A DNA stretch of 64,000 nt from Candidatus Eiseniibacteriota bacterium. GTDB taxonomy: Bacteria > Eisenbacteria > RBG-16-71-46. Each line of letters opens with the position of its first letter. The first letter of the stretch is position 1. The stretch lies in contig DASXQT010000010.1 in assembly GCA_036507005.1 (NCBI GenBank), positions 285-64,284 of the forward strand, in the 5' to 3' direction. Positions 10,259 to 62,301 of the stretch are shown one piece after another. A program made the translations under genes and the position numbers. The notes beneath the pieces were generated by a model. It was not told the origin of the DNA. It ran no database searches and saw nothing but the letters and a program-made list of their open reading frames with translations.

Positions 10259-11185
10259 ATGGTGCGAAATCGGATACTCGGCAACGTTCTCGCCTGTGCA
10301 CTGCTCACCACGATCGCAGGCGTTGCTTTCGCGCAGGGCCAGTACGACGCTCCGTCGCTCACGCTCGTCGACCGCGGGTATTACCGACTCACCTTCAGCG
10401 TGACCGCGGGCCCGAGCGGCGCCCCCAACGGCTACGCGATCCAGTGGATGAAGAGGGCCAACTACGAGCTCTACGGCGGCTGGCCTGCGGACGGCAGCAA
10501 CGTCGTGTACTGCGACTTCGTCGGCGCGCCCACGCTCAACCTCTGGGCCGGATCCCCGCTCCTCGGTCCCAACGAGACCGCCTCCTTCCAGGCCGGCGAC
10601 CTCTTCGATGAGACCAACATCGAGGGGTACTCGAACGACACCTACCTGAGCTTCACCGACGAGCTCGCGCACCACACCGACTACGTTTTCCGCGCGTACG
10701 CGCGGGGCGACGCGAACAACGATGCGAGCGCCTTCTCGTCCACGGTCTTCGCGAGCACCCTGCTCGCCGAGTGCACCCAGGGCTTCTGGAAGAACCATCC
10801 GGAGCTCTGGCCGCCGGGCTGCACGCCCATGCTCCTCGGCACGGTGTCCTACACCCAGGCCGAGCTGCTCAAGATCTACAGCACGCCGGCGAACGGCAAC
10901 GGCCTGATCTCGCTCGCGCATCAGCTCATCACGGCCAAGCTCAATCTCTGCAACGGCTCCACGTATCCTGCGGAGGTCCAGCAGGCGGTCAACGACGCCG
11001 ACGCGCTGATCGACGGCCAGGTGGTGCCGACGGTGGGCAGCGGCTTCCTGGCTCCGAGCCAGACCAGCGATCTCACCGAGACGCTGGACGACTACAACAA
11101 CGGTCTCCTCGGCGGCGTGGCGAACTGCCCGACCTCGGTGAAGAACAACACCACCTGGGGCCGGCTGAAGGCGCTCTACCGCTAA
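10259..11185 (+). CDS. secreted hypothetical protein with C-terminal WGRLKALYR motif
   Basis: ATG at 10259 is preceded by GGGAGG. The signal peptide MVRNRILGNVLACALLTTIAGVAFAQG is followed by 6 Cys. The extreme C-terminus is CPTSVKNNTTWGRLKALYR. Confidence 0.7.
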   Translation: MVRNRILGNVLACALLTTIAGVAFAQGQYDAPSLTLVDRGYYRLTFSVTAGPSGAPNGYAIQWMKRANYELYGGWPADGSNVVYCDFVGAPTLNLWAGSPLLGPNETASFQAGDLFDETNIEGYSNDTYLSFTDELAHHTDYVFRAYARGDANNDASAFSSTVFASTLLAECTQGFWKNHPELWPPGCTPMLLGTVSYTQAELLKIYSTPANGNGLISLAHQLITAKLNLCNGSTYPAEVQQAVNDADALIDGQVVPTVGSGFLAPSQTSDLTETLDDYNNGLLGGVANCPTSVKNNTTWGRLKALYR

Positions 11186-11202
11186 GATCGGCTTTCGACG
11201 GC

Positions 11203-11237
11203 AACGGGCGGGGTCTCCTTGACCCCGCCCGTTTTGC
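11203..11237 (+). terminator. intrinsic terminator hairpin
   Basis: AACGGGCGGGG-tctccttga-CCCCGCCCGTT followed by TTTGCTGG, 18 nt after the stop at 11185. Confidence 0.7.
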
Positions 11238-11562
11238 TGGGTGCGCCCGCGACACCTGAACGCGACGATCGCGACCCGGGCTGCCTCCGGAAGCGGGGCC
11301 CTTCGGCGCGGCGCCCCCGGTCCCGACTGCGCGGATCGCGTGTCGGCCTGCGGATTGGGCTTGAGCGTGGAATCCGCCTCCTGTAGACTTCTGGACCTGC
11401 GGCGACCTGCCCTCACCCCCTCAGGGCGATCTTCCCGGGCGCGGAGCCCGGATGACGTTGCGCCGGAAGATGGTCGGACCCAGCTTGCGAAGTCGACATC
11501 GGTGCCTGCCCTGCGCGTCCACACCCCCACGGACGACCCGGGCGCAGTGAGGAGCCCTCGCT

Positions 11563-12171
11563 ATGCGCCTGACTACCCGCCTCGCCGTTGTGTCCCTTCT
11601 CCTGCTCGTCGCCGCGCCAGTTGCACGCGCCACTCCGCCGAATCCGTCCCACGGCAGCGCCAACGTGGACGGGCTCTACGGGGAGTGGGACCTGGTCAAC
11701 GACTTCTTCTCGCTCATGTACCGCGCCGGAAACCCGACCAAGCCGGTCGAGTCCAAGGCGTACCTGCGGTACGACTGCACCACGCAGACCATGTACGTGC
11801 TGGTCCTGATGGAGCCCGGCCACATCGGCTACATCGACCCGCTCCTGCAGACCGCGTGGGTCGCCATCAACACGCAGAACAACAAGGTCGTGACCGAGAA
11901 CTCGGGCGACGACGGGATCCCTCCCGACTTCCAGTGGGTGGGCCAGGGCTTCGACAGCGATCCGCAGCACGTGCAAGGCTACGAGGCCTCGTTCCCGATC
12001 GCTCCCGGGAGCTACAACATCATCTTCCACATCGACGTCATCGATGCGAGCGGCGCGCAGACGTCGGCCTCGCCTGGCTTCCCGGGCACCGGCCCGGCGG
12101 TGATCATCGACTGCAGCCCGACTCCCACGGAGCACCGGAGCTGGGGAACCCTGAAGCTGATCTATCGCTGA
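11563..12171 (+). CDS. secreted hypothetical protein with C-terminal WGTLKLIYR motif
   Basis: Signal peptide MRLTTRLAVVSLLLLVAAPVARA. The extreme C-terminus is CSPTPTEHRSWGTLKLIYR, a paralogous tail to the upstream gene. Confidence 0.7.
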   Translation: MRLTTRLAVVSLLLLVAAPVARATPPNPSHGSANVDGLYGEWDLVNDFFSLMYRAGNPTKPVESKAYLRYDCTTQTMYVLVLMEPGHIGYIDPLLQTAWVAINTQNNKVVTENSGDDGIPPDFQWVGQGFDSDPQHVQGYEASFPIAPGSYNIIFHIDVIDASGAQTSASPGFPGTGPAVIIDCSPTPTEHRSWGTLKLIYR

Positions 12172-12190
12172 GCGCGACCTCACACACGGC

Positions 12191-12230
12191 GACCACCCTC
12201 CGTCCCGGCGGGTGGTCGTCGTGTTTCGGG
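12191..12230. terminator. hairpin between convergent genes (bidirectional terminator candidate)
   Basis: GACCACCC-tccgtcccggc-GGGTGGTC then GTCGTGTTTCGGG. It lies between the + gene ending at 12171 and the - gene ending at 12292. Confidence 0.5.
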
Positions 12231-12291
12231 TCGGCCGCCGGAGAGGTGCGCTGTGCGGCGCCCGCGCGGGAAGCCCGCGGTGCCGCGCGGA

Positions 12292-13701
12292 TCAGGCCGG
12301 CTCGGCCAGGCCCGCGCCGTCGCCGCTGCGCTCGGCGGGGGCCGAGCGCTCCACCACCTCGATGCGGTCGGAGTCCGGCGACTTCCACCACCAGCGCCAG
12401 CGCGCCGGGATCGCGCCCGCGGCGGCGTGATTCCACTGCAGCTGCGGCACGTCGCCCGCAAGGGCATCGCCGAAGTCCGCATCCACCGCCTCGGCCGCCC
12501 CCCACGCCCCGTCCATCGTGGCCGCCACGTCCGGCCGGCGCGCCGCGGCCAGATGGCGCTCGAGGTTGCGTGAGAGCCAGCCCACCATCCGGGGCCTGAG
12601 ATCGGCGAGCACGTTGAAGCAGTCGTGCGCGCCGCGGGGGTAGAACACCAGCTCGCGCTCGCAGCGCGCGCCCTCGAAGATGCGCCACGCCTCGCTGCCC
12701 GGCGTGATGAGGTCGTGGCCGCCGCCCGCCAGCATCAGCGGACAGCGCAGGTCGTCGAGCACGCCCGCCAGCGTGATCTTTTCGATGGACGCGCCCATCT
12801 CGGCCTCGGTGATCTCGTAGAGCGAGGCCAGCTCGCGGCGCATGCTGGCGAGGGTGACGTTCCAGTAGATGTCGGCGGAGAAGGGCGGGCTCACGGCCGC
12901 CACCGCCTTGATCCGGTGCTCGTGGGCCGCCATCCGGATCGCGAGGTAGCCGCCGAGGCTCATGCCCATGAAGGCGACCGCCCCCGGATCGAGCTCGGGG
13001 CGGGTCTCGATCTGGTTCAGGATCGCGACCCCCACCGGGCGCGGCTCCGCCACCATGGACATGCGGTGGAACGTCTGGCCCAGTCCCGGCCCGTCGAAGG
13101 TGATGGTGGCGATGCCGCGCTCGAGCATGGCCTCGGACCACCAGTGCATCTCCTCCTTCACCGCGTTGGTGCCGTTGAACAGCACCGCGACCGGCGCCGG
13201 CCGCCGGCCGGGAGGAACCCGCAGCATGCCCTTCATCGGGCGGCGCCGGAACTCGACCTCGAACGGCACCGCCGGGGGCTGGAACAGCGGCGCCGCGAGC
13301 CGGTAGGCGCGCACGCACTCCTCGTGGAGCACGCGCTTGCGCTCGATGTCGAGGAAGATGACGTACTGGGCGAAGTTGTAGGCCGCGGAGGCGGCGAGGA
13401 ACCGGCGTCCGGCGTCCTCGCGGCGCCCGAGCGCGAGCGCGTCCCGCCCGGCCTGCTCGTGCGCGCGCCCCAAGCTCTCCCATTCGTCCGCCCACGACGT
13501 GAGCCCCGAGATCCGGCCCAGGATCCTCTCGAGGTCCGCGGGCGAGACCCCCGCGTTCGTGAACTGGAGCTTCGCCCAGGCCGGCATCTGCTGGGCGAAC
13601 CCCATCTTGAGGCTGATGCTCACGAAGCCGGGCCGCAGGAGCTGGCCGCGCAGCAGGTGCGGAGCCAGGAACTCGAGCCGGCCGCCTTTGACCTTCATCA
13701 T
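12292..13701 (-). CDS. alpha/beta hydrolase (FrsA/esterase-like)
   Basis: Start at ATG 13701 (MMKVKGG). GMSLGGYLA is a G-x-S-x-G nucleophile elbow and the ...GGGHD... region follows. The 632-aa six-frame ORF upstream lacks homology and is rejected as an extension. Confidence 0.8.
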   Translation of the reverse strand: MMKVKGGRLEFLAPHLLRGQLLRPGFVSISLKMGFAQQMPAWAKLQFTNAGVSPADLERILGRISGLTSWADEWESLGRAHEQAGRDALALGRREDAGRRFLAASAAYNFAQYVIFLDIERKRVLHEECVRAYRLAAPLFQPPAVPFEVEFRRRPMKGMLRVPPGRRPAPVAVLFNGTNAVKEEMHWWSEAMLERGIATITFDGPGLGQTFHRMSMVAEPRPVGVAILNQIETRPELDPGAVAFMGMSLGGYLAIRMAAHEHRIKAVAAVSPPFSADIYWNVTLASMRRELASLYEITEAEMGASIEKITLAGVLDDLRCPLMLAGGGHDLITPGSEAWRIFEGARCERELVFYPRGAHDCFNVLADLRPRMVGWLSRNLERHLAAARRPDVAATMDGAWGAAEAVDADFGDALAGDVPQLQWNHAAAGAIPARWRWWWKSPDSDRIEVVERSAPAERSGDGAGLAEPA

Positions 13702-16859: not shown

Positions 16860-18438
16860 CGGCGGCTCCTCGCCGGGGACCGAGCCATCGCGGCCTATCT
16901 CTCGGCGAGCCTCCTCGCCTGGTCGGGCACGCCGGCGCCCGCCGCGACGTTCTACGTCGACCGGTCCAGCGTGAGCTGCTCCAACTCCGGCACCGGCACC
17001 GAGGCGCAGCCCTATTGCACGATCTCGGCCGCGCTCTCGGCCCGCGCCGGTCCGGGCAACACGATCGTCGTCAAGACCGGCATCTACCCGGAGCAGGTTT
17101 CCGTTCCCGCCTCCGGAGCTTCGGGCAGCCCGCTGATCGTCCAGGCCCAGGGCAGAGTGCTGGTGGATGGCGCCGCCGACTTCACCTCCGCCGGCCAGTG
17201 GGTGCATGACGGGCCCGGCTTCGACGGCCGGATTCGGCATCGGAGACAGCCCGAACTGGATCGCCGGCACCGCCCCCGGCGCCGCCTACCGCTTCAGCGC
17301 CTGGGTGCGCTCGGACAGCTCGCAGGGAGTCGCGAAGATCAAGGTCCGCGAGTACGTGGGCGGGAACCGTGTGGGCGAGATCGATTCGCCCGGGGCGACG
17401 CTCACGCCCGCCTGGCAACGGCTCGAGGTGGACTACGACGCGATCGAGAGCGGATCCACCATCGACATGACCGTGAAGGATGCGCCGCTCCAGCCGTCGG
17501 AGTCCTTCGACATCGACGATGTCTCGATCTGCGAGATCTCAGGCCCCTCTTCCCCCGGGGTCCACGCGGCGCTCGCCGTGATCCCCGCGAGCGTGCGCGT
17601 CACCGACGACCGGGGCGCCGTCGATTCGGCATCGGTCGCGGTCACCGTGGCCGGGTCCTGCGAAGCGAACCTGGTCCACAACCCGTCGTTCGAGACCGAC
17701 ACCTTGGGCTGGAAGGGCGTCGGCTGCACTCTCGCGATCGTCCCGGGCGGCCGGGCCGGCTCCTTCTCGTGCCGGATGACGAGCCCGGACTCGACCGCCG
17801 GCTTCGGGCTCGAGGACAGCCCCAACGTGGTGGGCGGCGCCCTCCACGGCGCGGTCTATCGCTTCCGCGCCTGGGTTCGTTCGGACGCCGCCCACGGGCC
17901 CGCCGAGATCAAGGTGCGCGAGTACCTGAACGACGTCCGGGTCGGAGAGAGGAGCTCGCCGCCGGTGACGCTCTCGCCCGGCTGGCAGCTGCTCGCGGTG
18001 GATTACGTCGCGGTGGAGGACGGATCCACGATCGACCTGACGGTGAAGGAGACGCCGCTCGGCCCGTCGGAATCGTTCGACGTGGACGACATCGAGGTGT
18101 GCGTCCTCTACGGCACCACGGACGTGAGCGGGGAGTACGACCCCGGGAGCGAGCCGCCGGGTGTGATCCGCGCGCAGGTGGCGCCCAACCCGCTCGTCCG
18201 CCGGGGCATCCTGCGCTTCTCCACCGGCCGCCCCGGCCCCCTCCACGTCGCGATCTACGATGCCGCCGGGAGCCGGGTGCGAAGGCTGCTGGACGCCCCG
18301 GACGCGCCCGCCGGCCCCCACGTGCTCTCGCTCGACGACCGCGACGACGACGGCGCACCCCTGACCTCGGGCATCTATTTCTATCGCATCCGTTCCGCCG
18401 CGGGCTCCGACCACGGGCGCTTCCTGATCCTGAGGTGA
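16860..18438 (+). pseudogene. secreted beta-helix + 2x CBM4_9 protein with T9SS-type C-terminal domain; frameshifted near 17190-17200
   Basis: Frame 0 (16860-17200) encodes ATFYVDRSS..NTIVVKTGIYPEQV, a right-handed beta-helix N-terminus. From ~17195 frame +1 encodes two CBM4_9-like repeats (STAGFGIGDSPNW..YRFSAWVRSD..FDIDDVSI, then again STAGFGLEDSPNV..YRFRAWVRSD..FDVDDIEV). It ends in a Por-secretion-type CTD (PNPLVRRGILRF...IYDAAGSRV..SGIYFYRI..GRFLILR). Copy 2 reads uninterrupted across the point where copy 1 switches frame. No clean start or signal peptide is visible upstream. Confidence 0.5.
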
Positions 18439-25257: not shown

Positions 25258-25935
25258 GTGGACTTCGAGGTCCGGGTCAAGCTCGCGATCTACGGCATCA
25301 CCGCGCGTCGCGGGCTCCCGCCGCGGCCGGACGAGCTGGCGAGCGAGCTGGGTGCCAGCGCCGACGAGATTCGCGCGGCCTGCGAGGGGCTGGCGCGGCG
25401 CCGCCTGCTCGTGCTCGATGCAGACGGCCGAGGCATCCGCATGGCCCCGCCGTTCTCCGGAATTCCCACCCCGCACCGCGTGCGCGTGGACGGGATCGAC
25501 TACTTCGCCAACTGCGCCTGGGACGCGCTCGGGATCCCCGCGGCGCTTCATCGGCCGGGCCAAGTGCGCTCGTCGTGCGCGCGGTCGCACCAGCCCCTGC
25601 GTCTCGAGATCGGCCTGCGGGGCCCGGCGCGCTCTCCCTGGCTCTTCCACTGCCTGGTGCCCGCCGCGCAGTGGTGGAACGACATCGTCTTCACCTGAAG
25701 CACGATGCTCTTCTTCCGGTCGGAAGCCTTCATCGACGCATGGTGCCGCGAGCGCTCGGTCCCGCGCCGGCCGGCGGTGACCATGGATCAGCTCTGGACG
25801 CTCGCCGTCACGTGGTACGCGACGCGCCTCGAGCCCGAGTCGCGCCGCCCGGCTCCCGACGAGATGCGCGGGATCTTCGCGGGCATCGGCCTCACCGGCG
25901 ACTTCTGGGATCCCAAGGCCGACACGTTCGGCTGA
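25258..25935 (+). CDS. merB: organomercurial (alkylmercury) lyase MerB homolog, interrupted by an in-frame TGA at 25696-25698 (candidate selenocysteine codon, or a pseudogene)
   Basis: GTG at 25258. The MerB N-terminal helix region and the catalytic C-x-x-D (GIDYFANCAWDALGIPAAL, vs R831b MerB ..YAWCALDTLIFPAL with Cys96 and Asp99) are present. After IVFT-TGA-STMLFFRSEAFIDAW the segment aligns to MerB SFCC(159/160)HVHFFASVPTAEDW, so the TGA falls on the Cys159/160 position. Both pieces are in the same frame (25258 and 25705 share a frame; total 226 codons vs 212 in MerB). Hairpin CUUCC-GGUC-GGAAG at 25713-25726, 14 nt after the TGA. Confidence 0.6.
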
Positions 25936-26201
25936 GGCGGGCTCGGGCAAGGCAGCCCGCGGCGGCCACGGCGGCCGCAACCTATTCCACAAAATTTCCC
26001 ACAACTCGTTCTTGCCGCGTTCACGGGCATCGCGGTAGCGTCGATCGCACGAGGAGAGGAAGGGCCGCGCAATCCCGGCCGGGTCGCGCGAAGGAGTCGC
26101 CGATGCGCCGTGCCCTCGACGCCGCTGCAGCCGCCCGTCCCCCGTGCCGCCCCCGCGATCGATCCCCCCGCCCATGGTGGCGTCCGCGCGCCGCCGCGCG
26201 C

Positions 26202-27917
26202 ATGGCGCCGGTTCTCGCCGCGGCGCTGCTCGCGGCGGCCCCCGCCACGGCCGCCCCGGGCGACCCGGGTCACACCGTCACGATCTGGGTGCACGGCTTC
26301 GACACGAATGGCGCGGGCCGTCACGGGACCTACGGCGACGATCTCGCGCTCCGCTCCGCCACGGACAGCCTCGCCGCGCTGGTGGGCCTGCCGACGATCG
26401 AGCCCGGAGAGGCCGCGCCGCCTCCCGACGTGGTCGCGGCCACGACCTACTACGGCGACACGCCTCCGGCCTACTACTCCGCCGCGGACGTCGCCGACGT
26501 CGATGGGATCACCGCCCAATACGGCGGCGGCGTGCCGCGCTACGCCCTGATCGTGGCCAAGTACGCGCGCCAGCTGCTCCGGCGCTCGGGCGCATCGCAG
26601 GCGAACCTCGTGAGCGCCAGCTTCGGCTCGCTGGTCGCGCGCTGGATGATCGAGAAGGACGTCGAGGGGCTCGCGAGCGAAGGCAGGATCGCGCGCTGGC
26701 TGACCGCCGAGGGCGTGCTGTGCGGCAACTGGGCCGCGAGCCGCCCCGAGACCATGAAGCTGCTCGACCTCCCGGGCATCGATTTGATCGACCTGGTCCA
26801 CATGAGCTACGGCTGGATCGAGGCGAACCTGCACTCCCCGCGCACCGAGGCCGACAACCCGCTGCTCGCGGGCATCCTGATCGGGCAGATGGGCTCGACC
26901 GATGACCGCGCGCGCAGCGCGTCGCTCAGCGTGGCCATGGCCGCCTACGGCGAGTTCGCGCCCAACGACGGCGTGCAGGCGCTGCCGGATGCGTACTTCC
27001 ACGACGTGACCGCCGCTTCGCGGCTGCTGGGCCTGCCGCCGACCCTGAGCCTCTACCATGTTGGCCACTTCGACCTCGCGGGCGAGCGCGGCGCGTGGGT
27101 CCAGCTCGCGAGCTTCCTCACCCAGCGGCGCCGCGTCACGGTCACGATGACCTCGGCGCAGGTCTTCGACCTGCACGAGATCGCGCTTCCGTTCTGGGAC
27201 TGGAGGCCGGCCGAGATCACGTTCGAGTCCCGCGTCTACTCGCCGCTCGCGCAGGCGTTGTGGGGAATCTCCGAGCCGCTCTCGACCTGCGAGAAGGACG
27301 GGGCCGCCGCGCCGCTGCGGCTCTATCGCCAGAAGGGCGAGACCCGGAGCTTCCGCCAAGTGGTGTACGACGACTTCGTGATGGAGGGCGAGAGCGATCT
27401 CGTGCTCGAGCTTCACGCCGACGAGATCGATCACGACTGGCGCTACGGCGTCTTCGAGACCACGCAGACGCCCTCCTACGACGCCATGGGCGCCGGCACG
27501 ATCCGGGTCTCGACCCGAACGCCCGGCACCTATGCGTTCAACGCAGGCGATTGGGCGTGCACGCTCGAGGTCGGGGTGGTCGAGTATCCGTTCGGCACGC
27601 TCGCGCACGCGGTCGGCGTGGGTGAGGCCGCAGCGCCCGGCGGGCCGGTGGCGCTCGCGCTCTGGCCGAATCCGTTTTCCTCGAGCGTTCGCATCGCGGT
27701 TTCCGGTCTTGCCCCTTCGGTCGGGCTCTACCCCGCGCGGTTGACGATTCGCGACCTGTCCGGACGATCGATCCGGCGCATGGAGGGAGACGCGGGAGCG
27801 GGCTTCGTCTGGGATGGCCGCGACGACAGCGGCCGCCCCGTCCCGCCGGGCGTATACCTGCACCGCCTGGAGACGGAGGGCCGCGCGCTCGACGGGAGGA
27901 GCCTGCTGCTGCGCTGA
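26202..27917 (+). CDS. secreted alpha/beta-hydrolase-like lipase/esterase with T9SS-type C-terminal sorting domain
   Basis: Signal peptide MAPVLAAALLAAAPATAAPG. The TIWVHGFD oxyanion-hole-like motif and SASFGSLVARW lie in the body. The C-terminal ~85 aa carry the Por_Secre_tail pattern (WPNPFSSSVRIAV...IRDLSGRSIRRM...FVWDGRDDSGRPVPPGVYLHRLETEGRALDGRSLLLR). An alternative start is ATG 26103. Confidence 0.7.
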   Translation: MAPVLAAALLAAAPATAAPGDPGHTVTIWVHGFDTNGAGRHGTYGDDLALRSATDSLAALVGLPTIEPGEAAPPPDVVAATTYYGDTPPAYYSAADVADVDGITAQYGGGVPRYALIVAKYARQLLRRSGASQANLVSASFGSLVARWMIEKDVEGLASEGRIARWLTAEGVLCGNWAASRPETMKLLDLPGIDLIDLVHMSYGWIEANLHSPRTEADNPLLAGILIGQMGSTDDRARSASLSVAMAAYGEFAPNDGVQALPDAYFHDVTAASRLLGLPPTLSLYHVGHFDLAGERGAWVQLASFLTQRRRVTVTMTSAQVFDLHEIALPFWDWRPAEITFESRVYSPLAQALWGISEPLSTCEKDGAAAPLRLYRQKGETRSFRQVVYDDFVMEGESDLVLELHADEIDHDWRYGVFETTQTPSYDAMGAGTIRVSTRTPGTYAFNAGDWACTLEVGVVEYPFGTLAHAVGVGEAAAPGGPVALALWPNPFSSSVRIAVSGLAPSVGLYPARLTIRDLSGRSIRRMEGDAGAGFVWDGRDDSGRPVPPGVYLHRLETEGRALDGRSLLLR

Positions 27918-39494: not shown

Positions 39495-39712
39495 GAGAGC
39501 CTCGAGAAGGGGCGGGACACTAGCACGCGGTGCGGCGGCCCCGCCACGCGCCGCGACATCTCCGCGACGGCCGCGCACCAGATCATGGGACCGGGGCGCC
39601 CGTGTGGGCTATTCTTTCCCGCGCCCGAGCAAGATCCCTTCCGGCACGCTGCGTGCGAAGGAACGCACGTGCTCGCACTTCGAACCCACGCAGCTCGAGC
39701 ACGGAGGTCACC

Positions 39713-40546
39713 ATGAAGCCCAGCCGGATCGCCCTTGCCGCGTTCGCGGTTCTCCACGTCGCCGCGCGCGGTGTGCTGGCCCAGGACTCGCCCGCATCCC
39801 AACCCCTCGATCCCTTCGCCGCCGTGCGCCTCGAAGGCCCGGCCGTCGCGGCGCCCGCCGAATTCTCCGCCGCCCCCGCGGCGCCGGCCGCCTACCGTGG
39901 CGGGCCGCGCCTCGACGCGGTGCGCTATCGCCCGCGCTATCGCGATGGCTACCGCGAGCGCTCGGGCGGGTACGTGCACTCGTCGCCCGCGCAGATCCAC
40001 GCCGGATTCTTCGACCCCGAAGGGAACGGCGCCACCAGCTTCGCGATCGGATTCCGTGGCGGGCCCGCGGTCGACGAGCACATCCAGCTCGGCTTCGGGG
40101 CCGACTGGTATCACAAGTCGGAGAGCCGGCGGGAAGTGCAGGGCACGACGTTCCAGGGCGGGCAGCCCGTCACCGTCACCCGTGTGCTCGCGCGCGCCTC
40201 CTCGAACCTCTTCCCGTTCCAGGCCTACCTGCAGGTGAGCGGCGGCGACAACCTGTCCGTCATCCCCTACTTCGGGGTCGCGGGCGAGTACCAGGTGCTG
40301 CTGCTCTCGGCCACCGACTACCAGACCGGAGCGGACTTCGACGCCACGTTCGGCGGCTGGGGGTGGCAGGTGTGGGGCGGAGCGGCGCTGCCGCTCTCGG
40401 GGCGGTCGCGCATGTTCGGCGAGGTGTTCGTGAACAACGGCGACGTCGAGCGCGACGTCGACGACCCCGCGAGCGGCGTCACGTTCCGCGAGAGCGTGAA
40501 CGCCGACGGCGTCGGAATGCGCTTCGGCCTGAGCTGGGGGTTCTAG
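39713..40546 (+). CDS. outer-membrane beta-barrel protein (OmpA-N/OmpW-like barrel)
   Basis: SD ACGGAGG. Signal peptide MKPSRIALAAFAVLHVAARGVLAQD. The C-terminal aromatic residue (...GMRFGLSWGF) is typical of OM barrels. Confidence 0.7.
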   Translation: MKPSRIALAAFAVLHVAARGVLAQDSPASQPLDPFAAVRLEGPAVAAPAEFSAAPAAPAAYRGGPRLDAVRYRPRYRDGYRERSGGYVHSSPAQIHAGFFDPEGNGATSFAIGFRGGPAVDEHIQLGFGADWYHKSESRREVQGTTFQGGQPVTVTRVLARASSNLFPFQAYLQVSGGDNLSVIPYFGVAGEYQVLLLSATDYQTGADFDATFGGWGWQVWGGAALPLSGRSRMFGEVFVNNGDVERDVDDPASGVTFRESVNADGVGMRFGLSWGF

Positions 40547-47859: not shown

Positions 47860-48094
47860 CCTGGTGATCGAGTCCAGCTCTAGACCGCAGCGGCCGGCTG
47901 CTCGGCGCCGTCCTCGATGGTGTGGTGAGGGAGCGCGCGAAGCTCGACCTCGGTCAGCTCGAGGCCGAGACGCCGCTGGGGGTCGAATCCCGGGGGACCT
48001 TTCAAGGCGGGAAGATGTCGGGGCCGGAGTAGAAGGTGCTACGCTCCGTAGCGCAATCGTAACACCCACGTTGAGTCTGTGCAGGAGACCGAGC

Positions 48095-48904
48095 ATGGCC
48101 CCATCGGTGATTGATTCGCTTCAGGGAGTGGTCGTCCATCAAGAGGCCCTGATTCTCGCCCTCAATCATCGTGTCGACTCGCTGCTGGCCGCCGTTCCCG
48201 ACACCGTGCGAGACACCATCTGGGCTGGTTTCATGGACCAGCGACCACATGGACTCGGAATCGCGCCAAAGGACGTGATCGGATGGGTGGTGACTGCTGC
48301 CGGCATTTTCGCGGCAGGCTGGGTCGCGCGGACTGGCTGGAATCGATCAGACAGTGCGGGACGCCGTTTGCAGAAGGATCGTCACGAAACCGAAGAACGG
48401 AGGATGCGCGAGCAACTCGTGCTTCGGATCCGCGGAACACTGGAGACGATGAGAGCCACCGCCGCGTCGACGCTGAAGAAGGACGCCACTCACCCGATCA
48501 ATCCAGAGACCATGAACAACATCCTCGTCGCCTGGAAGCGCTTCGACCGCGTGTCGGACAACTTGTGGCTGCTCAATGACCTCGTGATGCAGGACCGGAT
48601 CGAGACAATCACGGAGTTCGGGCGCATGACTGCCGAAAAGATCAGGGAGGACGAGCAGCGGTTCCGCGAGACCCGCGTACTCCTAGGGCAGAGGTCTCCG
48701 GAGGCGTTGATTGTCCACCCCTCGCTCGTCACGCGGGCCGTGGACCAGCGCACAAAGCTGCTGACGGTCGTGACGAAGCTCCGTGACACGACAGCTGGGC
48801 TTCTGATCGATTTCAACGCCAAATGGCCGCCGGTGGCCGGGCACACTGAGCGCACCGAACCCGAAACTAGCAGCGACGAAATGCCTCCGGTCAATCCGAG
48901 CTAG
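48095..48904 (+). CDS. hypothetical protein (one predicted TM helix), islet gene
   Basis: SD GCAGGAG before ATG 48095. TM segment VIGWVVTAAGIFAAGWVA. No family recognised. The 3' end overlaps the convergent gene by 4 nt. Confidence 0.55.
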   Translation: MAPSVIDSLQGVVVHQEALILALNHRVDSLLAAVPDTVRDTIWAGFMDQRPHGLGIAPKDVIGWVVTAAGIFAAGWVARTGWNRSDSAGRRLQKDRHETEERRMREQLVLRIRGTLETMRATAASTLKKDATHPINPETMNNILVAWKRFDRVSDNLWLLNDLVMQDRIETITEFGRMTAEKIREDEQRFRETRVLLGQRSPEALIVHPSLVTRAVDQRTKLLTVVTKLRDTTAGLLIDFNAKWPPVAGHTERTEPETSSDEMPPVNPS

Positions 48905-49473
48905 CGCCGGACCCCGCGTGAGCGTGACCGTCGGGGAAACCATTGAAGAAAGAGAGGGCCACGGTAGGCGTCCAACTTTCGGCGCAGCGTGTAGAGATCC
49001 CCGATTGCCGTGAGGAACGGCATCGTGCCGAGGGACGAGATGCCCGCTGGAAGCAACGACGTCGGGCTGCCCTCGGGCACAAATGGCAGTTGGGCGGGCT
49101 TGTAGTTCTGCTGTTGCCAGTAGGCGGTCGAGTAGGCGCTCTTGATCTTGTCTCGGATCTCCATCTCGAGCGGCGGGTTCTCGAGTTCAGAGACGCGGGC
49201 TTCCGAATCGACAAGTTCCTTTAGCCACGTAACGCACTGAGACAGGTGCCAAGGCTGGTAATACTGAGCCTGCATCTTCTGTTGGTTCTCAGCTTCCTTC
49301 AATCCGTCGGAGATCTTTCCGAAGTAGTGGTGCAGGTGGCGAGCTGTAGTCTGACGCCTTACGGCTCGTTGAAACCAGTGCCGGAAGTAGATGGCGTACA
49401 CACTCACGGCTGCGCCACCGATGAACGCTGTGATCGTCTTTGGCGTTATCCAAGCGGATAGCCACGACGGCAT
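48901..49473 (-). CDS. hypothetical membrane-anchored protein, islet gene
   Basis: N-terminal TM helix (ITAFIGGAAVSVYAIYF). Lower-GC codon usage. No family recognised. Confidence 0.55.
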   Translation of the reverse strand: MPSWLSAWITPKTITAFIGGAAVSVYAIYFRHWFQRAVRRQTTARHLHHYFGKISDGLKEAENQQKMQAQYYQPWHLSQCVTWLKELVDSEARVSELENPPLEMEIRDKIKSAYSTAYWQQQNYKPAQLPFVPEGSPTSLLPAGISSLGTMPFLTAIGDLYTLRRKLDAYRGPLFLQWFPRRSRSRGVRR

Positions 49474-49794
49474 TGTGTTCGCTCCTCCTTGATCGCATAC
49501 GCCCCCTTTCCCACTGAGAGCGCAGCTTCGAAAGATGGCGGCGAATGAGCCTCGTTAGTTGGCGTTCCAGAGCAGGCCGTAGACCAAGTCGACTGAGCGT
49601 GGGTGGGCCTGGCTTTTGTCTACCCTCGAACTTCAGCCGGTTTTGGTGACGCGGACTCGCTGACGACCGCTAGAGACTGTTTGGGCAACAAGAGTCGGCC
49701 GCGGGATGCAGCCGCGACCAGCTTCTGGCTTCGAAACGGAGTTTTCGTGCTCTGCATCAGCATGCGTTCAGCGTGGCAGGTCCATGGGCGTCGT

Positions 49795-50496
49795 CTAGGG
49801 TGACTTGTCCACAGGCGCCCGTGAGTCCACGATCGACAGCAGATGGCTCGCGAGGATGATCATCTCAACCGACTCCTTCGGTTGAAGGTCGATCGGACGA
49901 TGACTGTGTGGGTTCTTGTACGATCCGATTGCCCCGACAAAGAGGTCTCGCAGCGCCTGTCGCTCGCCACCCTCGCGATCCATGTTAGTCAGCGGACCGC
50001 CTTCGGGATTGAACGCCGCCTTCATAAGGGCGACACCGATGTCCTTGTCATGGAAACCGCCGGCCGCGCGCACCGAAATCTCGACCTCCCGGAACGCCTC
50101 AAACACCGCGTTCTGGTAATCCCCGCGAGCAAATGCCTTCCAAACACGACTCAGAAGCTTCGGATGGAGCAGGTCTTTCGAAAGGAGGGTCGCGAGGCGC
50201 ATATCAGCAAACGACCCCGCAGCAGCGGCCTTGCCTTTCTTCGAGACGGAGTACCAGTCGTCAGTGGACCTCGTGAGGAAGCCCTGGGCTTCGAGAATGC
50301 TCCAAGCTCCCAGGAAGAGCTGCTCGACCCACTCTTCGCGGCCGAATGCTCTCCAACAGTCTCCCCGGAAGTTGTAACGGTTGAGCTTGGCCCTGTTCTC
50401 TTCGCTGGTCACGAGGAAACGTAGCAGCGCTTCGGAAATGTCCTCAGGCGCCAGTTCACGTACCACGGCGACTGGAAAGCTCACTTGCAAGGTCAT
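49795..50496 (-). CDS. TIGR02391 / Hypoth_Ymh (PF09509) family protein
   Basis: The C-terminal region LHPKLLSRVWKAFARGDYQNAVFEAFREVEISVRAAGG...IGVALMKAAF...LRDLFVGAIGSYKNPHSHRP...EMIILASHLLSIVD fits the Hypoth_Ymh consensus (AVFEAFK.VE..VR, G..LM..AF, G.....RNP.AH, ASHLL..VD). The start is taken at the internal ATG 50496. The longer ORF to 50604 would overlap the integrase start head-to-head. Confidence 0.65.
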   Translation of the reverse strand: MTLQVSFPVAVVRELAPEDISEALLRFLVTSEENRAKLNRYNFRGDCWRAFGREEWVEQLFLGAWSILEAQGFLTRSTDDWYSVSKKGKAAAAGSFADMRLATLLSKDLLHPKLLSRVWKAFARGDYQNAVFEAFREVEISVRAAGGFHDKDIGVALMKAAFNPEGGPLTNMDREGGERQALRDLFVGAIGSYKNPHSHRPIDLQPKESVEMIILASHLLSIVDSRAPVDKSP

Positions 50497-50596
50497 CTCT
50501 AGGGCCTTCCTGACACCGACCCTCCTTCGGGGGGGCCCTGTACCGGTTCGTGGAGGCTCGGGAAGGATAGTTCCGATGCCGAAACGACCAAAAAAC

Positions 50597-51150
50597 ATGG
50601 TCAAACACGGGAGAATGTACTACTTCCGCGACAAGGCCGGCGGGCGTGATCGCCGCGTCTCCGCCCCCGGAACGATTACGGCGAAGCACTCGTCCGGTTT
50701 CGATCTTTGAAACGCGGTCGCCGTTCCCGCGGCGACTGCCGAGGATTCAGGAGCGACCGCCGGATCGACTGAGCGACGGCGAGATCGAGCGGGTGTTCTC
50801 GCTCGAGGATCCGTACGGGTTCATCGGACGATTCCTGGTCGGCACTGGCCTGCGGTGGGGCGAGCTGACAAGGGCCCGGTCTTCTGATGTCTCGGGCAGC
50901 CGGCTCCGCCCCTTGCGGAACGCGGACGGCTTCAATGTCCAGATTCGCGGGCGGGCAGGGATTCCGGGCTTCAATGCTCACCAGCTTCGGCACACATTCG
51001 CGTGCGGGTAGCTGGATGCTGGCGGAAGTCTGGCCGCTCTTCAGGAAATCCTCGGGATCGCCTCGATCGTGACGACGCAGCGTTACGGCCGTCTCGGCGA
51101 GGCGCACGCGCAGGCCGAAGCAGCACGATTGCAGGGGACGGCACCTCTCT
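50597..51150 (+). pseudogene. tyrosine recombinase/phage integrase remnant (fragmented: frameshift plus in-frame TAG)
   Basis: Frame 2 encodes the integrase N-terminus (MVKHGRMYYFRDKAGGRDRRVSAPGTITAKHSS). Frame 0 encodes the catalytic-domain pieces (LSDGEIERVFSL, FLVGTGLRWGELTRARSSDV, HQLRHTFACG), then a TAG at 51013-51015, then LDAGGSLAALQEILGIASIVTTQRYGRL (the conserved LLGH.S..TTQ.Y.H tail). The total is far shorter than an intact ~350-400-aa integrase. Confidence 0.7.
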
Positions 51151-51171
51151 AAGTCGTGTACCTACGGCCCC

Positions 51172-51220
51172 GGAGAGGTGCGAGAGCGGCTGAATCGCGC
51201 GGTCTCGAAAACCGCCCAAG
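51172..51220 (+). tRNA. tRNA-Ser(CGA) 5' fragment (acceptor 5' strand, D-arm, anticodon arm); no T-arm or 3' acceptor, so probably a pseudo-tRNA or att remnant
   Basis: GGAGAGG-TG-CGA-GAGCGGCTGAA-TCG... GCGGT-CTCGAAA-ACCGC. U8 and the D-loop GG are present. AGCGGCTGAA and GGTCTCGAAAACC are near-identical to E. coli tRNA-Ser(CGA). Downstream sequence lacks GGTTCGAATCC or the acceptor complement. Confidence 0.5.
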
Positions 51221-51294
51221 AGGACAGATTCGTTCGCCCATGGCCTGCCGACGCCTCCGCCTGCTCGCCGACGCCGCGCCTAGCGGCGGGCGCC

Positions 51295-51978
51295 TCACCA
51301 ATACAAGCTGAGCCCCAGCGTGTACGTCATCAGGTTCCCGCCGATGTGCGCCGCGACCACGCGCGCGTACTCGGCCTCGAGGCCCAGTCCCAGCGACTGC
51401 CGTATCCTGAAGTCGTAACCCGCGGCCGCGGTGGCGGCGAACCCGGCGTCCTGTTGCCATACCCCTCCGGAGCCGGCGGGCGCGAGGGTCTCCACCCGCT
51501 CCTCGCACACTCCGCCGCCGCCGCGCACGTAGAAATGGCGCGCGCTTGGGTACGCCGTGGCGGTCGCGGTGATGATCTCGAGCCGGCGGTCGAGGCCCGA
51601 CTGCGAACCAGTCCAGCCCCTGGCCTGGAACCCCGCGAGCACGCCGGGCGCCACAACGTGTCCGACACGAAACTGCGTCATGGTTCCGGACTTGCGGCCG
51701 AGCGGATCGCCTTCCATGTCCAGGCTGCCGGCGCCCATGTTCAGGCCCAGCACCCAGGCGCTCGGCTTCAGCGGCGTGCGCTCCTTCGGGGCTTTCGGCG
51801 CCTTCGCGACCTTGGGTGCCTTCTCGGCTTTCGGCGCCTTGGGCGGCTTCGGCGCCTTCTCGTGCTTCTCGGCCGCGGGCTTCGACTCTTTCGGGGTCTT
51901 CGACTTTGCCGCCGCCGGCGAAGGAAGCGCGAGGGCGGCGCACAGGAGGAGCAGCAGGGGCAGCGGAATGCGCTTCAT
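51295..51978 (-). CDS. outer-membrane beta-barrel protein with N-terminal Lys/Pro/Ala (KAPK) repeat linker
   Basis: Signal peptide MKRIPLPLLLLLCAALALPSPAAA. KAPKPPKAPKAEKAPKVAKAPKAPK repeats. The C-terminus ...YTLGLSLYW has the terminal aromatic of an OM barrel. Confidence 0.7.
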   Translation of the reverse strand: MKRIPLPLLLLLCAALALPSPAAAKSKTPKESKPAAEKHEKAPKPPKAPKAEKAPKVAKAPKAPKERTPLKPSAWVLGLNMGAGSLDMEGDPLGRKSGTMTQFRVGHVVAPGVLAGFQARGWTGSQSGLDRRLEIITATATAYPSARHFYVRGGGGVCEERVETLAPAGSGGVWQQDAGFAATAAAGYDFRIRQSLGLGLEAEYARVVAAHIGGNLMTYTLGLSLYW

Positions 51979-52111
51979 CGGATTCTCCATGGATCGACGA
52001 TGCCGTGCGCGGCCGGCCGTGGATGCGATAGGATGCGCCGTCCGCCAGTGGTCCGGGAACGTTAGCCCGTGCGGCCCGAGACCTCAAGAAGCCACCGGCC
52101 GAGCGCTCCCC

Positions 52112-60957: not shown

Positions 60958-61033
60958 GCGCGGGCGGTGCGCCGCGCACGCGGCGGAACGAGCAGGCGCC
61001 GAAAGACATGCGCGCCGCGCCCGGAGAATTGAC

Positions 61034-61064
61034 TTGACCCTCGGTCGACGGGAGCTAGCATTTT
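61034..61064 (+). promoter_or_regulatory. candidate promoter: TTGACC-N16-TAGCATTTTG
   Basis: TTGACC 61034-61039. TAGCAT 61056-61061 is followed by TTTG. The motif is shared with 40705-40735, including the GCTAGC(R)TTTTG core. It lies ~100 nt upstream of the phosphoesterase start. Confidence 0.3.
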
Positions 61065-61161
61065 GTGCGCTCGGCTCCGTGTCGAGTGGCCGCATCTGCG
61101 GCTTCACCCCACTTCGAGCCGGTCCCTACTCAGATGCGTGGCCGCGCGTCCGGGAGGAACC

Positions 61162-62301
61162 ATGTGCAAGCTCCCCTCGCTTTATCTCCTGCTGTTCGGC
61201 GCCGCGTTTTCCCCCACCATTTCTGCGGCCGCCGGCCCTCCCGCTCTCGATCACGTGATCGTGGTGGTGATGGAGAACCACACGTACGACCAGGTGCGCA
61301 CCGCTAGCTACACCGCGAGCTTGATCCGGAACTACACCTCCTTCTCCAAGTCCTACGCCCTCACCCATCCTTCCCAGCCCAACTACCTCGCGCTCTGGGC
61401 CGCCACGACGCAGGGCGTCACCAACGACAACTGTCCCGCGCCGGGCTCGCCCTACACCGACGAAAACCTCGGACACGCGATCCAGGTGGCGGGCAAGAGG
61501 TGGAAGGCCTACTCCGAGAATCTGCCGTCGGCCGGCAGCACCGCGTGCACCGCCTCGAGCTCCCTCTACACCCGCAAGCACGATCCCTGGACCAACTACT
61601 CGAACTGCAACCACGCCTGGGAGGTTCCCTATGGCCAGCTCGCCACCGACATCGCCGCCGGCACGCTCCCGGACCTGGCGTTCGTCATTCCGAACAATTG
61701 CGACAACACCCACGATTGCTCGGTCTCGACCGGCGACGCCTGGCTCGCGAGCAACCTGCCGTCGATGATCTCCGCGGTGGGCCCGCGCGGACTGGTCATC
61801 CTCACGTGGGACGAGGACGACAAGAACCACGGCAACCACATCCTCACCGTCTTCGCCGGACCGGTGGTGAAGACGAACTACGTCTCGAGCACCACCATCA
61901 CGCACTACACCCTGGTGCGTACGATCTGCGACGCGCTCGGGATCGGCGCCTTCGCCAACGCGGCGACGGAGAGCGGCGTGAGCGACGTGTGGAACACCAC
62001 CACGGACGTGCCGCCGGCGGTCGTCGCGGGTGCCAGGCTCGGCGAGCCCCGTCCCAACCCCTTCCGCGGCTCGGTCTCGGCCACGCTCGAGCTGGAGGAT
62101 GCGTCCTGGATCGAGGCCGCGATCTACGACCTCGAAGGCCGGCGGGTGCGGTGGCTCGTCTCGGGTACCCGGCAGGGCGCGGTCGAGGTCCAATGGGACG
62201 GGACGCGCGACGACGGCGGCGCGGCGCCCGGGGGCCTCTACTTCCTGCGCGTCGAGGTGGCGGGCGCGGTGCTGGAGAGAAGGCTGGTCCGCGTTCGTTG
62301 A
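61162..62301 (+). CDS. secreted phosphoesterase-family protein (PLC/acid-phosphatase-like, PF04185) with T9SS-type C-terminal sorting domain
   Basis: SD GGGAGG. Signal peptide MCKLPSLYLLLFGAAFSPTISAAAG. DHVIVVVMENHTYDQV and SQPNYLALWAATTQG are phosphoesterase-family motifs. The C-terminal CTD is PNPFRGSVSATLEL...IYDLEGRRVRWL...VQWDGTRDDGGAAPGGLYFLRVEVAGAVLERRLVRVR. Confidence 0.8.
   Translation: MCKLPSLYLLLFGAAFSPTISAAAGPPALDHVIVVVMENHTYDQVRTASYTASLIRNYTSFSKSYALTHPSQPNYLALWAATTQGVTNDNCPAPGSPYTDENLGHAIQVAGKRWKAYSENLPSAGSTACTASSSLYTRKHDPWTNYSNCNHAWEVPYGQLATDIAAGTLPDLAFVIPNNCDNTHDCSVSTGDAWLASNLPSMISAVGPRGLVILTWDEDDKNHGNHILTVFAGPVVKTNYVSSTTITHYTLVRTICDALGIGAFANAATESGVSDVWNTTTDVPPAVVAGARLGEPRPNPFRGSVSATLELEDASWIEAAIYDLEGRRVRWLVSGTRQGAVEVQWDGTRDDGGAAPGGLYFLRVEVAGAVLERRLVRVR

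Follow-up and report, generated by a model that had tools for sequence, protein, structure and literature searches.

A ten-residue C-terminal tail shared by unrelated secreted proteins of Eisenbacteria and allied phyla is a candidate sorting tag

Results

We analyzed a 64-kb stretch of DNA (the window), part of a 260,525-bp contig from an uncultured Candidatus Eisenbacteria bacterium with a GC content of ~72%, and focused on two adjacent genes whose products end in the same short tail, hereafter the WG tail. Gene 1 (VGK89_01835; 10259..11185, + strand) was called as an open reading frame (ORF) of 308 aa and encodes a tag-bearing secreted protein with an FN3-like domain and a helical domain, whereas gene 2 (VGK89_01840; 11563..12171, + strand) is a 202-aa ORF call for a tag-bearing secreted beta-sandwich protein resembling carbohydrate-binding module (CBM) family CBM9. 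Their products are 100% identical to NCBI hypothetical proteins VGK89_01835 (database entry P0001, Candidatus Eisenbacteria) and VGK89_01840 (database entry P0121). Inspection of the sequences predicted a Sec signal peptide for each: in gene 1 at 10259..10333 (+), with cleavage placed by the AxA rule between MVRNRILGNVLACALLTTIAGVAFA and Q, and in gene 2 at 11563..11631 (+), with a putative cleavage site between MRLTTRLAVVSLLLLVAAPVARA and T. AlphaFold2 (AF2) modeled the signal peptide helix at residues 3-20 of protein 1 and residues 3-16 of protein 2. At the opposite end, protein 1 terminates in ...NCPTSVKNNTTWGRLKALYR and protein 2 in ...DCSPTPTEHRSWGTLKLIYR, each directly before the stop codon, so that the last ten residues read TWGRLKALYR and SWGTLKLIYR, respectively. 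The extended tag of gene 1 (11126..11182, +) consists of Cys290, the linker PTSVKNNT and the core T-W-G-R-L-K-A-L-Y-R (core 11153-11182) with a free C-terminus; that of gene 2 (12112..12168, +) consists of Cys184, the linker SPTPTEHR and the core S-W-G-T-L-K-L-I-Y-R (core 12139-12168), likewise with a free C-terminus. A six-frame regular-expression scan found exactly these two copies of the motif in the window. The window's own six-frame residue frequencies predict 2.8e-8 matches to [ST]WGx[LIVM]Kx[LIM]YR-stop, and the two copies observed therefore exclude chance as the origin of the shared tail. A first-pass annotation of the window had described two adjacent signal-peptide proteins, otherwise dissimilar, with a common C-terminal tail, and the ORFs, the scan and the unrelated folds described below bear this out.

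Both genes are followed by GC-rich, terminator-like hairpins, at 11199..11239 (+; -41.5 kcal/mol, z = -4.6; then UUUUG) for gene 1 and at 12172..12235 (+; -51.4 kcal/mol, z = -5.0) for gene 2. The strong terminators proposed earlier at these positions thus hold as very stable GC-rich hairpins, but a consensus terminator scan called neither of them because the U-tracts are short.

We then asked how well the tail is kept among relatives of the two proteins. A large protein database contained 444 relatives of protein 1, of which the tail count covers 120 listed, and 62 relatives of protein 2. The tail formed the exact C-terminus, with zero residues after it, in 111 of the 120 listed family-1 proteins and in 39 of the 62 family-2 proteins, and the exceptions in both families were mostly truncated or carried close variant tails. 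Family 1 was not selected by pattern, and its members retained W in 119/119, G in 117/119, K in 118/119, Y in 117/119 and R in 109/119 cases, the other terminal residues being His or Lys. Across 65 family-1 orthologues, C290 and W300 were invariant and G301, K304, Y307 and R308 were at least 90% conserved. Rare orthologues have Arg in place of the lysine at position -5 (P0047, P0246). Tail columns rank among the most conserved in both families, and the tail is under strong purifying selection. Synteny comparison showed that genes 1 and 2 are not neighbors in other genomes; their adjacency is therefore incidental rather than the sign of a conserved pair.

To see where else the tail occurs, we wrote [ST]-W-G-x-[LIVMF]-K-x-[LIVMF]-Y-R-stop as a degenerate DNA pattern and ran it against a collection of 185,579 species genomes. 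At least 120 loci were returned, and ~125 of the 130 matches listed closed substantial ORFs whose upstream sequences differed greatly, next to a handful of chance matches (Lachnospiraceae, Nocardia, Mucilaginibacter). After removal of the last 16 residues, 115 carriers fell into 70 BLAST clusters, 54 of them singletons. Most carriers matched no Pfam domain; those that did had domains of surface or secreted type (beta-helix, LTD, CHRD, PMP repeats, CBMs, cupredoxin and NHL), and NCBIfam matches of the cargo included families tied to varied anchors, namely choice-of-anchor R, ExeM, ScyE/F and a myxosortase-dependent M36 peptidase. Neither protein 1 nor protein 2 matched any Pfam or NCBIfam family, and no model of either collection (NCBIfam release 20, June 2026) covered the tail in the two window proteins or in any of the 115 carriers. 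A strict home-made heuristic, used alongside visual inspection, assigned signal peptides to 70% of carriers versus 22% of neighboring ORFs, an enrichment that the first-pass annotation had named as a check on its proposal; ~4-5 carriers resembled lipoproteins. Carriers were uniform in size despite their unrelated sequences (median 243 aa, interquartile range 212-268), in contrast to a median of 681 aa for ORFs bearing the C-terminal domain (CTD) of the type IX secretion system (T9SS) in the same loci, and were rich in cysteine (median 5 Cys). A limit that the pathway sets on cargo size may lie behind this uniformity. In addition, a profile search of the large protein database with 87 forty-residue tails gave 13 candidates, all of them short fragments.

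By record title, the loci listed comprised 33 from Eisenbacteria, 8 from Latescibacterota, 8 from high-GC metagenome-assembled genomes (MAGs) labeled Fibrobacteraceae or Fibrobacter, 6 from Krumholzibacteriota, 3 from MAGs labeled Gemmatimonadota, 2 from Cloacimonadota, 1 from Zixibacteria and 52 from unclassified MAGs. The only Bacteroidota label among them (L114, Mucilaginibacter) belonged to a 6-residue chance match. The loci listed thus came mostly from Eisenbacteria and allied candidate phyla of the Fibrobacteres-Chlorobi-Bacteroidetes (FCB) group, and some phages carry the tag too. A few short contigs were labeled with other phyla, perhaps through binning errors: real tagged ORFs lay on short contigs binned outside the FCB group as Woesearchaeota (L064, a 2.2-kb contig of 27% GC), Polyangiaceae (L054), Verrucomicrobiia (L088) and Elusimicrobia (L067), and these labels reflect either mis-binning or a distribution wider than the main sample suggests. 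Several MAGs carried more than one tagged locus, or 2-5 tagged genes in a tandem array. In one array of five tandem paralogues (L043:3328-6741, -), the tails were intact (TWGGVKALYR-stop), longer by one residue (…ALYRQ-stop, …ALYRR-stop), or extended and degenerate (SWGEIKTFFAEHDKTGRP-stop, SWSVIKSIYMSQPD-stop), and the array is possibly a natural series of tag loss.

A position matrix built from the 115 carriers extended the motif to [C at -18..-20 in ~56%]-x-[PAV]-[VTS]-[PAS]-[TVA]-[ERK]-x-[ST]-[TS]-W-G-x-[IVL]-K-[AS]-[LIM]-Y-R-COOH, that is, a short linker rich in Pro, Thr and Val, often after a Cys, and a core containing Lys(-5) and Arg(-1), with no hydrophobic stretch in the last 24 residues. 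The first-pass annotation had counted the cysteine as part of the motif. It is indeed conserved within each of the two families, but it is frequent rather than obligatory in the tag at large: a Cys lay 9-13 residues ahead of the Trp in 68 of the 115 tagged proteins (59%), whereas 31 had no Cys within 40 residues. Six-frame translation of ~1 Mb of fetched loci contained 19 strict copies that had not been selected by the scan; of these, 15 ended the protein exactly and 4 had one residue more, with 0 at internal positions. When a viral collection was scanned without the stop codon, 9 of 32 matches were exactly terminal and 3 had 1-5 extra residues, at least one of the latter looking like a true tail; the other matches are weighed in the Discussion. 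Two findings that would have spoken against a tag, namely a tail limited to these two proteins and a motif internal in homologues, were thus not what we saw, given ~125 ORFs and 70 unrelated clusters among the matches listed, from many MAGs, and the terminal position both in the two families and in the unselected copies.

An element that always abuts the stop codon might act as nucleic acid or during translation, either as an RNA signal or as a nascent-chain arrest peptide, and a Trp upstream of the stop recalls arrest peptides of the TnaC type. The amino-acid motif, however, is kept across loci of 27-74% GC with free choice of synonymous codons, and an Rfam search gave no match. The genes appear monocistronic with hairpins downstream, and the carriers are hundreds of structural and enzymatic secreted proteins, unlike leader peptides. 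We regard such a role as highly improbable.

Structural models separated the tail from its cargo. Built with family alignments, the AF2 models reached a mean predicted local distance difference test (pLDDT) score of 87.8 for protein 1 and 87.4 for protein 2. Protein 1 was modeled with a helical domain after an FN3-like beta domain, in agreement with structure matches to FN3 domains, and protein 2 as a beta-sandwich whose top Foldseek matches were the CBM9 structures 7nwo and 1i82, so the two proteins are, as modeled, unrelated in fold. In both models, the confident domain stopped at the conserved Cys and was followed by a disordered linker (pLDDT < 50 at residues 294-297 of protein 1 and 188-191 of protein 2), after which the last eight residues formed a detached short helix of low confidence (residues 300-307 and 194-201, respectively). 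The tail is thus predicted to lie outside the cargo fold. An amphipathic helix was considered and is kept as a weak lead: the hydrophobic moment of the tail peaked at 110-115 degrees, yet this peak was reached by 22% of shuffles.

The modeled helix on a flexible tether, and the alternation of Trp, Ile, Leu and Tyr with Lys and Arg along the tail, could also suit a retention peptide that tethers exported proteins, covalently or not, to peptidoglycan, a lipid or an anchor protein. L,D-transpeptidases link Braun's lipoprotein (Lpp) to peptidoglycan by its C-terminal ...Y-R-K, and some penicillin-binding proteins have C-terminal amphipathic helices. The conserved Lys at -5 and the terminal Tyr-Arg of the WG tail resemble the ...KYRK end of Lpp, which we take as a lead only. 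The Arg that replaces this Lys in rare orthologues argues against a role of the lysine as nucleophile in a covalent link; the chain ends in Arg, or at times in His or Lys, rather than in a fixed Lys; ten residues make a weak membrane anchor; and the hydrophobic moment is not significant. On balance, a retention peptide of this kind seems rather doubtful.

The models and conservation also bear on local paralogy and on decay, in which the tail would be a functionless leftover, such as the final strand of a T9SS CTD, as the first-pass annotation had allowed. Genes 1 and 2 are adjacent, and the genome carries T9SS CTDs. The folds, however, are unrelated, genes 1 and 2 are not paired in other genomes, the tail ranks with the best-conserved parts of both families and recurs on 70 unrelated clusters in many MAGs, and it has no similarity to CTDs. 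With the tail terminal in orthologues and present at no fewer than 120 loci, this explanation was rejected, and we give it next to no weight; the idea of a CTD remnant does not survive the lack of profile similarity to co-resident CTDs and the strong purifying selection.

The clearest indication of function came from the domain of protein 2. A profile of this family-2 domain retrieved 803 homologues, bacterial and archaeal, among 1.84 billion representative proteins; the domain is CBM9-like, has no Pfam model (one UniRef name reads "DUF2271 domain...") and usually stands at the N-terminus of proteins that reach 1881 aa in length. We classified the C-termini of the best 150 homologues. A hydrophobic helix with a basic tail was present in 63 of them, including VPEP...RRR endings like PEP-CTERM, VPE[TY]... 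endings like archaeal PEF or PGF signals, and LP[EKFR]TG endings of sortase type. A T9SS-type CTD was assigned to 9 of the best 150, with ~3 further by eye, and the WG tail to 11, with ~5 close variants such as SFGAIKALYR; the remainder of the best 150 had another ending or none. In the alignment, the sorting signals of homologues with transmembrane (TM) anchors begin where the WG linker starts, and in carrier MAGs, paralogous cargo domains bear either a WG tail or a T9SS CTD. This anchor swapping, or "choice-of-anchor" behavior, is the strongest clue to function that we have: the simplest view of a tail that trades places one-for-one with known sorting signals, on proteins with signal peptides, is that it is a sorting signal too. 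The family-2 domain itself is a candidate "choice-of-anchor" domain that pairs with almost every known class of C-terminal anchor. Five family-2 homologues (P0194, P0195, P0201, P0209 and P0217) have a Cys-rich module (CC.P.G.C...C...W...C.PNPC) between the domain and the WG tag.

We next searched for machinery. Clustering of 3013 ORFs from the 120 loci, and Pfam annotation of 149 immediate neighbors, showed no enrichment of receptor, peptidase or translocon genes, and sortase, exosortase and rhombosortase were likewise not enriched among these neighbors or ORF clusters. A protease or sortase-like gene co-occurring with the tag, which the first-pass annotation had suggested looking for, was thus not found among gene neighbors. 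Because genes for sorting enzymes generally lie apart from those of their substrates, this negative result carries little weight. Individual loci offered isolated observations. In one contig (L045:4422-7998, +), an array of four tagged genes and one untagged paralogue is directly followed by genes for a multihaem cytochrome c554-like protein and a Peptidase_C25 of the gingipain/PorU family with a propeptide domain, a single case that we do not treat as evidence. In another (L135:3277-4014, -, and 11618-12445, -), a rhomboid protease is encoded two genes from a family-2 tagged gene and an Rce1-like (CPBP) protease ~6 kb away, and the rhomboid keeps its position in a second contig (L136). Sorting enzymes of other systems come from both of these families, but proteases of either kind are so common that their presence here means little.

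Tagged ORFs also occurred on nine IMG/VR contigs. Viral ORFs ending in the tag include L004:7893-8660(+), L011:12452-12943(-), L003:698-1519(-), L007:5719-6420(+), L008:3253-4098(-) and L009:3155-3568(-). According to PHROGs, at least two of the tagged viral contigs are genuine tailed-phage genomes, one encoding portal, major head, tape-measure and tail proteins (L011) and the other DNA polymerase, primase and a tail protein (L004), and several tagged proteins of the phages begin with what looks like a signal peptide. These phages presumably infect carrier bacteria, as judged from contig composition rather than from host assignment, and seem to borrow the host tag. Phage copies fit an address label read by the host and are hard to square with a degron or a remnant of a fold. 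They bear on a further explanation, in which the tail would be a handle for quality control or chaperoning, that is, a free C-terminal ligand through which a PDZ or TPR protein, either a DegS/DegP-like sensor or a tail-specific protease, would watch over exported proteins or degrade them. The strict free C-terminus and the near-terminal aromatic residue do recall the recognition of the YxF-COOH end of outer-membrane proteins (OMPs) by the PDZ domain of DegS. A degron, however, would be expected neither on secreted proteins of phages nor conserved on 70 unrelated cargo families, and one would hardly expect it to take the place of sorting anchors, one for one, in homologues; we therefore hold this explanation to be very unlikely.

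The window encodes another C-terminal signal as well. The first-pass annotation had noted three proteins with T9SS-type CTDs, and these are real: a CBM_4_9 protein (17137-18435, +) and a phosphoesterase (61033-62298, +) match Pfam FlgD_ig, and a 780-aa protein (25575-27917, +) matches it weakly, at 24 bits, under the Pfam gathering threshold. The source genome so employs at least two different C-terminal signals, the WG tail and the FlgD_ig-type CTD. Genes flanking the tagged pair encode ordinary metabolic enzymes, with no sorting genes among the flanking genes of the window, and tRNA and Rfam scans of the window gave no matches. A patch of lower GC content at 48000-52000 (0.60-0.65 versus 0.72-0.77 around it), which holds a Hypoth_Ymh-family protein (49798-50604, -) and ORFs without a family match, is probably a horizontally acquired islet. 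Elsewhere, a 340-aa ORF without a Pfam match (39524-40543, +) ends in ...GMRFGLSWGF, which resembles the C-terminus of an outer-membrane beta-barrel protein.

Discussion

The architecture of the carriers and the swapping of anchors lead us to favor, with moderate confidence, a reading in which the WG tail is a modular, portable C-terminal tag of ~17-20 residues for sorting or retention. The first-pass annotation had proposed an undescribed sorting or processing tag, and the terminal position, the unrelated carriers and the lack of an existing model support that proposal, with the function itself deduced. Under such a model, a tagged protein would be exported by Sec and lose its signal peptide, after which a dedicated receptor would recognize the free tail, either in the periplasm or at the outer membrane, probably through the terminal carboxylate and the side chains of Trp, Lys, Tyr and Arg. 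Possible identities of this receptor are a component of a translocon, a sortase-like peptidase and an anchor protein. Its task would be to send cargo to the surface of the cell or beyond it, or to keep cargo in place there, and the linker of small residues might be cut in the process. The receptor may belong to the T9SS apparently present in these genomes or to a separate system.

Several points weigh against this reading. The invariance of W, G, K, Y and R in the genome-scan set was imposed by the search pattern, so that the orthologue sets alone provide an independent test of conservation. The signal-peptide calls came from home-made heuristics, a looser version of which was uninformative, with a background of 57-60%. 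In the AF2 models, the helical conformation of the tail is of low confidence, and the hydrophobic moment of the last ten residues did not differ significantly from that of shuffles. Enrichment among neighbors was confined to secreted T9SS-CTD cargo and to generic kinase, TPR and ABC families, a usual outcome for sorting systems that nonetheless leaves the mechanism unanchored. Finally, the viral scan also returned 15 internal matches in one unrelated phage family (...TWGEMKQIYRELKK...) and 5 single internal ones; taken as independent cases, with the family counted once, internal matches number ~7. Members of this look-alike family (viral contigs L138-L140, L142, L145-L150, L153, L156, L158 and L159) lack the linker context and carry the motif ~55-75 residues from the N-terminus, within ...GYNA[IL]PGV[IM]AQD[IV]N[TS]WGEMKQ[IV]YRELKKPEV.... 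The motif is thus terminal in carrier genomes, but the bare 9-mer is not unique to C-termini in wider sequence space.

A more specific proposal, which we advance tentatively and think somewhat less likely to be right than wrong, is that the WG tail labels an undescribed envelope-sorting route apart from T9SS and sortase-type systems. Such a route would be restricted to Eisenbacteria, Latescibacterota, Krumholzibacteriota, Zixibacteria, Cloacimonadota and their relatives, where a dedicated reader (a receptor, translocon or transpeptidase) would recognize the 10-residue free C-terminus on small folded proteins, and phages of these bacteria would have taken over the label as a means of putting proteins of their own into the host envelope.

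The study of C-terminal signals such as LPXTG, PEP-CTERM and the T9SS CTD has in each case uncovered a machine for secretion or anchoring, and surface proteins are routinely predicted from such signals. The carrier phyla, which are uncultured, abound in soils, sediments and digesters, and almost nothing is known of the biology of their cell envelopes. A searchable tag of ~10 residues would define a surface and secreted proteome in these lineages, including hypothetical CBM-like, beta-helix, LTD and CHRD proteins, and would offer a handle for finding the machinery through phylogenetic profiling or structure prediction of peptide and receptor. Phage copies of the tag suggest a route to linking phages with hosts in these lineages, and a curated hidden Markov model of the tail would bring an immediate gain in annotation. 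If our reading is correct, the WG tail would be the first bacterial sorting tag of its class with neither a membrane helix nor a folded domain.

Comparison with known C-terminal signals

The WG tail displays what is generally seen in sorting signals: it sits at the extreme C-terminus, accompanies signal peptides, occurs on unrelated cargo in restricted lineages and interchanges with known signals. Full-text literature searches with motif strings, and with the carrier phyla combined with sorting or T9SS terms, returned no description of it, and a search of PDB sequences with the tail profile gave 0 matches.

The closest comparison is with the T9SS CTD (type A, TIGR04183/PF18962; and the FlgD_ig-like variant PF13860, which is common in candidate phyla of the FCB group). 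Both are C-terminal signals on Sec-exported proteins without a membrane helix, both have a basic terminal residue, with a conserved Lys nearby in the WG tail, and the two are found in the same FCB-group genomes, in the same loci and on homologous cargo domains. The tail might accordingly be a minimal T9SS signal read by the Por-type machinery that exports cargo with FlgD_ig-type CTDs, by analogy with "motif C-t.", the C-terminal motif of the CTD (last strand, conserved Lys) that is needed for secretion (PMC11285876). In keeping with this, all named carrier phyla belong to the FCB group, and CTD cargo is encoded in 37 of the 120 tagged loci, with three such proteins in the window. The CTD, however, spans ~60-100 residues (beta1-beta7), and its intact Ig-like fold is reported to be essential for T9SS (PMC11285876), whereas the tail has 10-20 residues and lacks the Ig-like 3+4 beta-sandwich. 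T9SS tolerates a C-terminal extension of the CTD (PMC11285876), whereas the WG tail is almost always strictly terminal, and the cargo differs in size, as noted above. PF18962, PF13860, TIGR04183 and TIGR04131 matched neither window protein 1 or 2 nor any of the 115 carriers, while the same models detected the true CTD proteins of the window, and an hhalign comparison of 150 tails with 27 co-resident CTDs gave a probability of 0.4% with 1 aligned column. Moreover, the single Bacteroidota label among the loci listed was a chance match, although T9SS is widespread in that phylum. A minimal T9SS signal is therefore, in our judgment, unlikely, and we continue to favor a distinct sorting or retention tag.

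That tag is similar in habit to LPXTG/sortase, PEP-CTERM/exosortase, PGF- and PEF-CTERM/archaeosortase, GlyGly-CTERM/rhombosortase and MYXO-CTERM, which are also short, portable tags on unrelated secreted proteins of restricted lineages. The WG tail fills the same slot as these signals in family-2 homologues, and its linker often reads P-[VT]-E, aligning with the (V)PEP or PE[TF] of homologues. Unlike them, it has no hydrophobic TM helix and no terminal cluster of Arg and Lys, and the genuine signals of this type in family-2 homologues differ markedly from it in appearance. The comparison with TIGRFAM C-terminal models that the first-pass annotation had recommended returned nothing: NCBIfam/TIGRFAM models of sortase-type C-termini matched neither window proteins 1 and 2 nor the 115 carriers (E <= 1). 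Descent from PEP-CTERM, suggested by the likeness of the linker P-V-E to (V)PEP, is unsupported, with Glu at -13 in 43 of 115 tails and no PEP-CTERM-like proteins among 651 ORFs of the tagged loci.

Among FCB-group bacteria, the basic terminal domain (BTD, or FPm-1) of Fibrobacter succinogenes is likewise a basic C-terminal appendage of secreted proteins. It comprises 45-90 residues and has been re-interpreted as a T9SS CTD (PMC6851124, PMC3079729). We therefore ruled out the BTD, by its length and class, as an earlier description of the 10-residue motif.

Signals read at a free C-terminus include the OMP beta-signal and the DegS-activating YxF-COOH, the ...YRK-COOH of Braun lipoprotein, and the eukaryotic PTS1 (SKL) and KDEL. 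The WG tail resembles them in its end-of-chain position, in an aromatic residue near the terminus and in its basic terminal residues; their sequences are different, and the tail lacks the alternating pattern of the beta-signal. Taken together, these comparisons place the tail apart from both structural classes, the tripartite signals with a TM helix and the folded CTDs, since it fails the defining tests of each; the WG tail therefore stands as a candidate C-terminal sorting signal outside every existing family.

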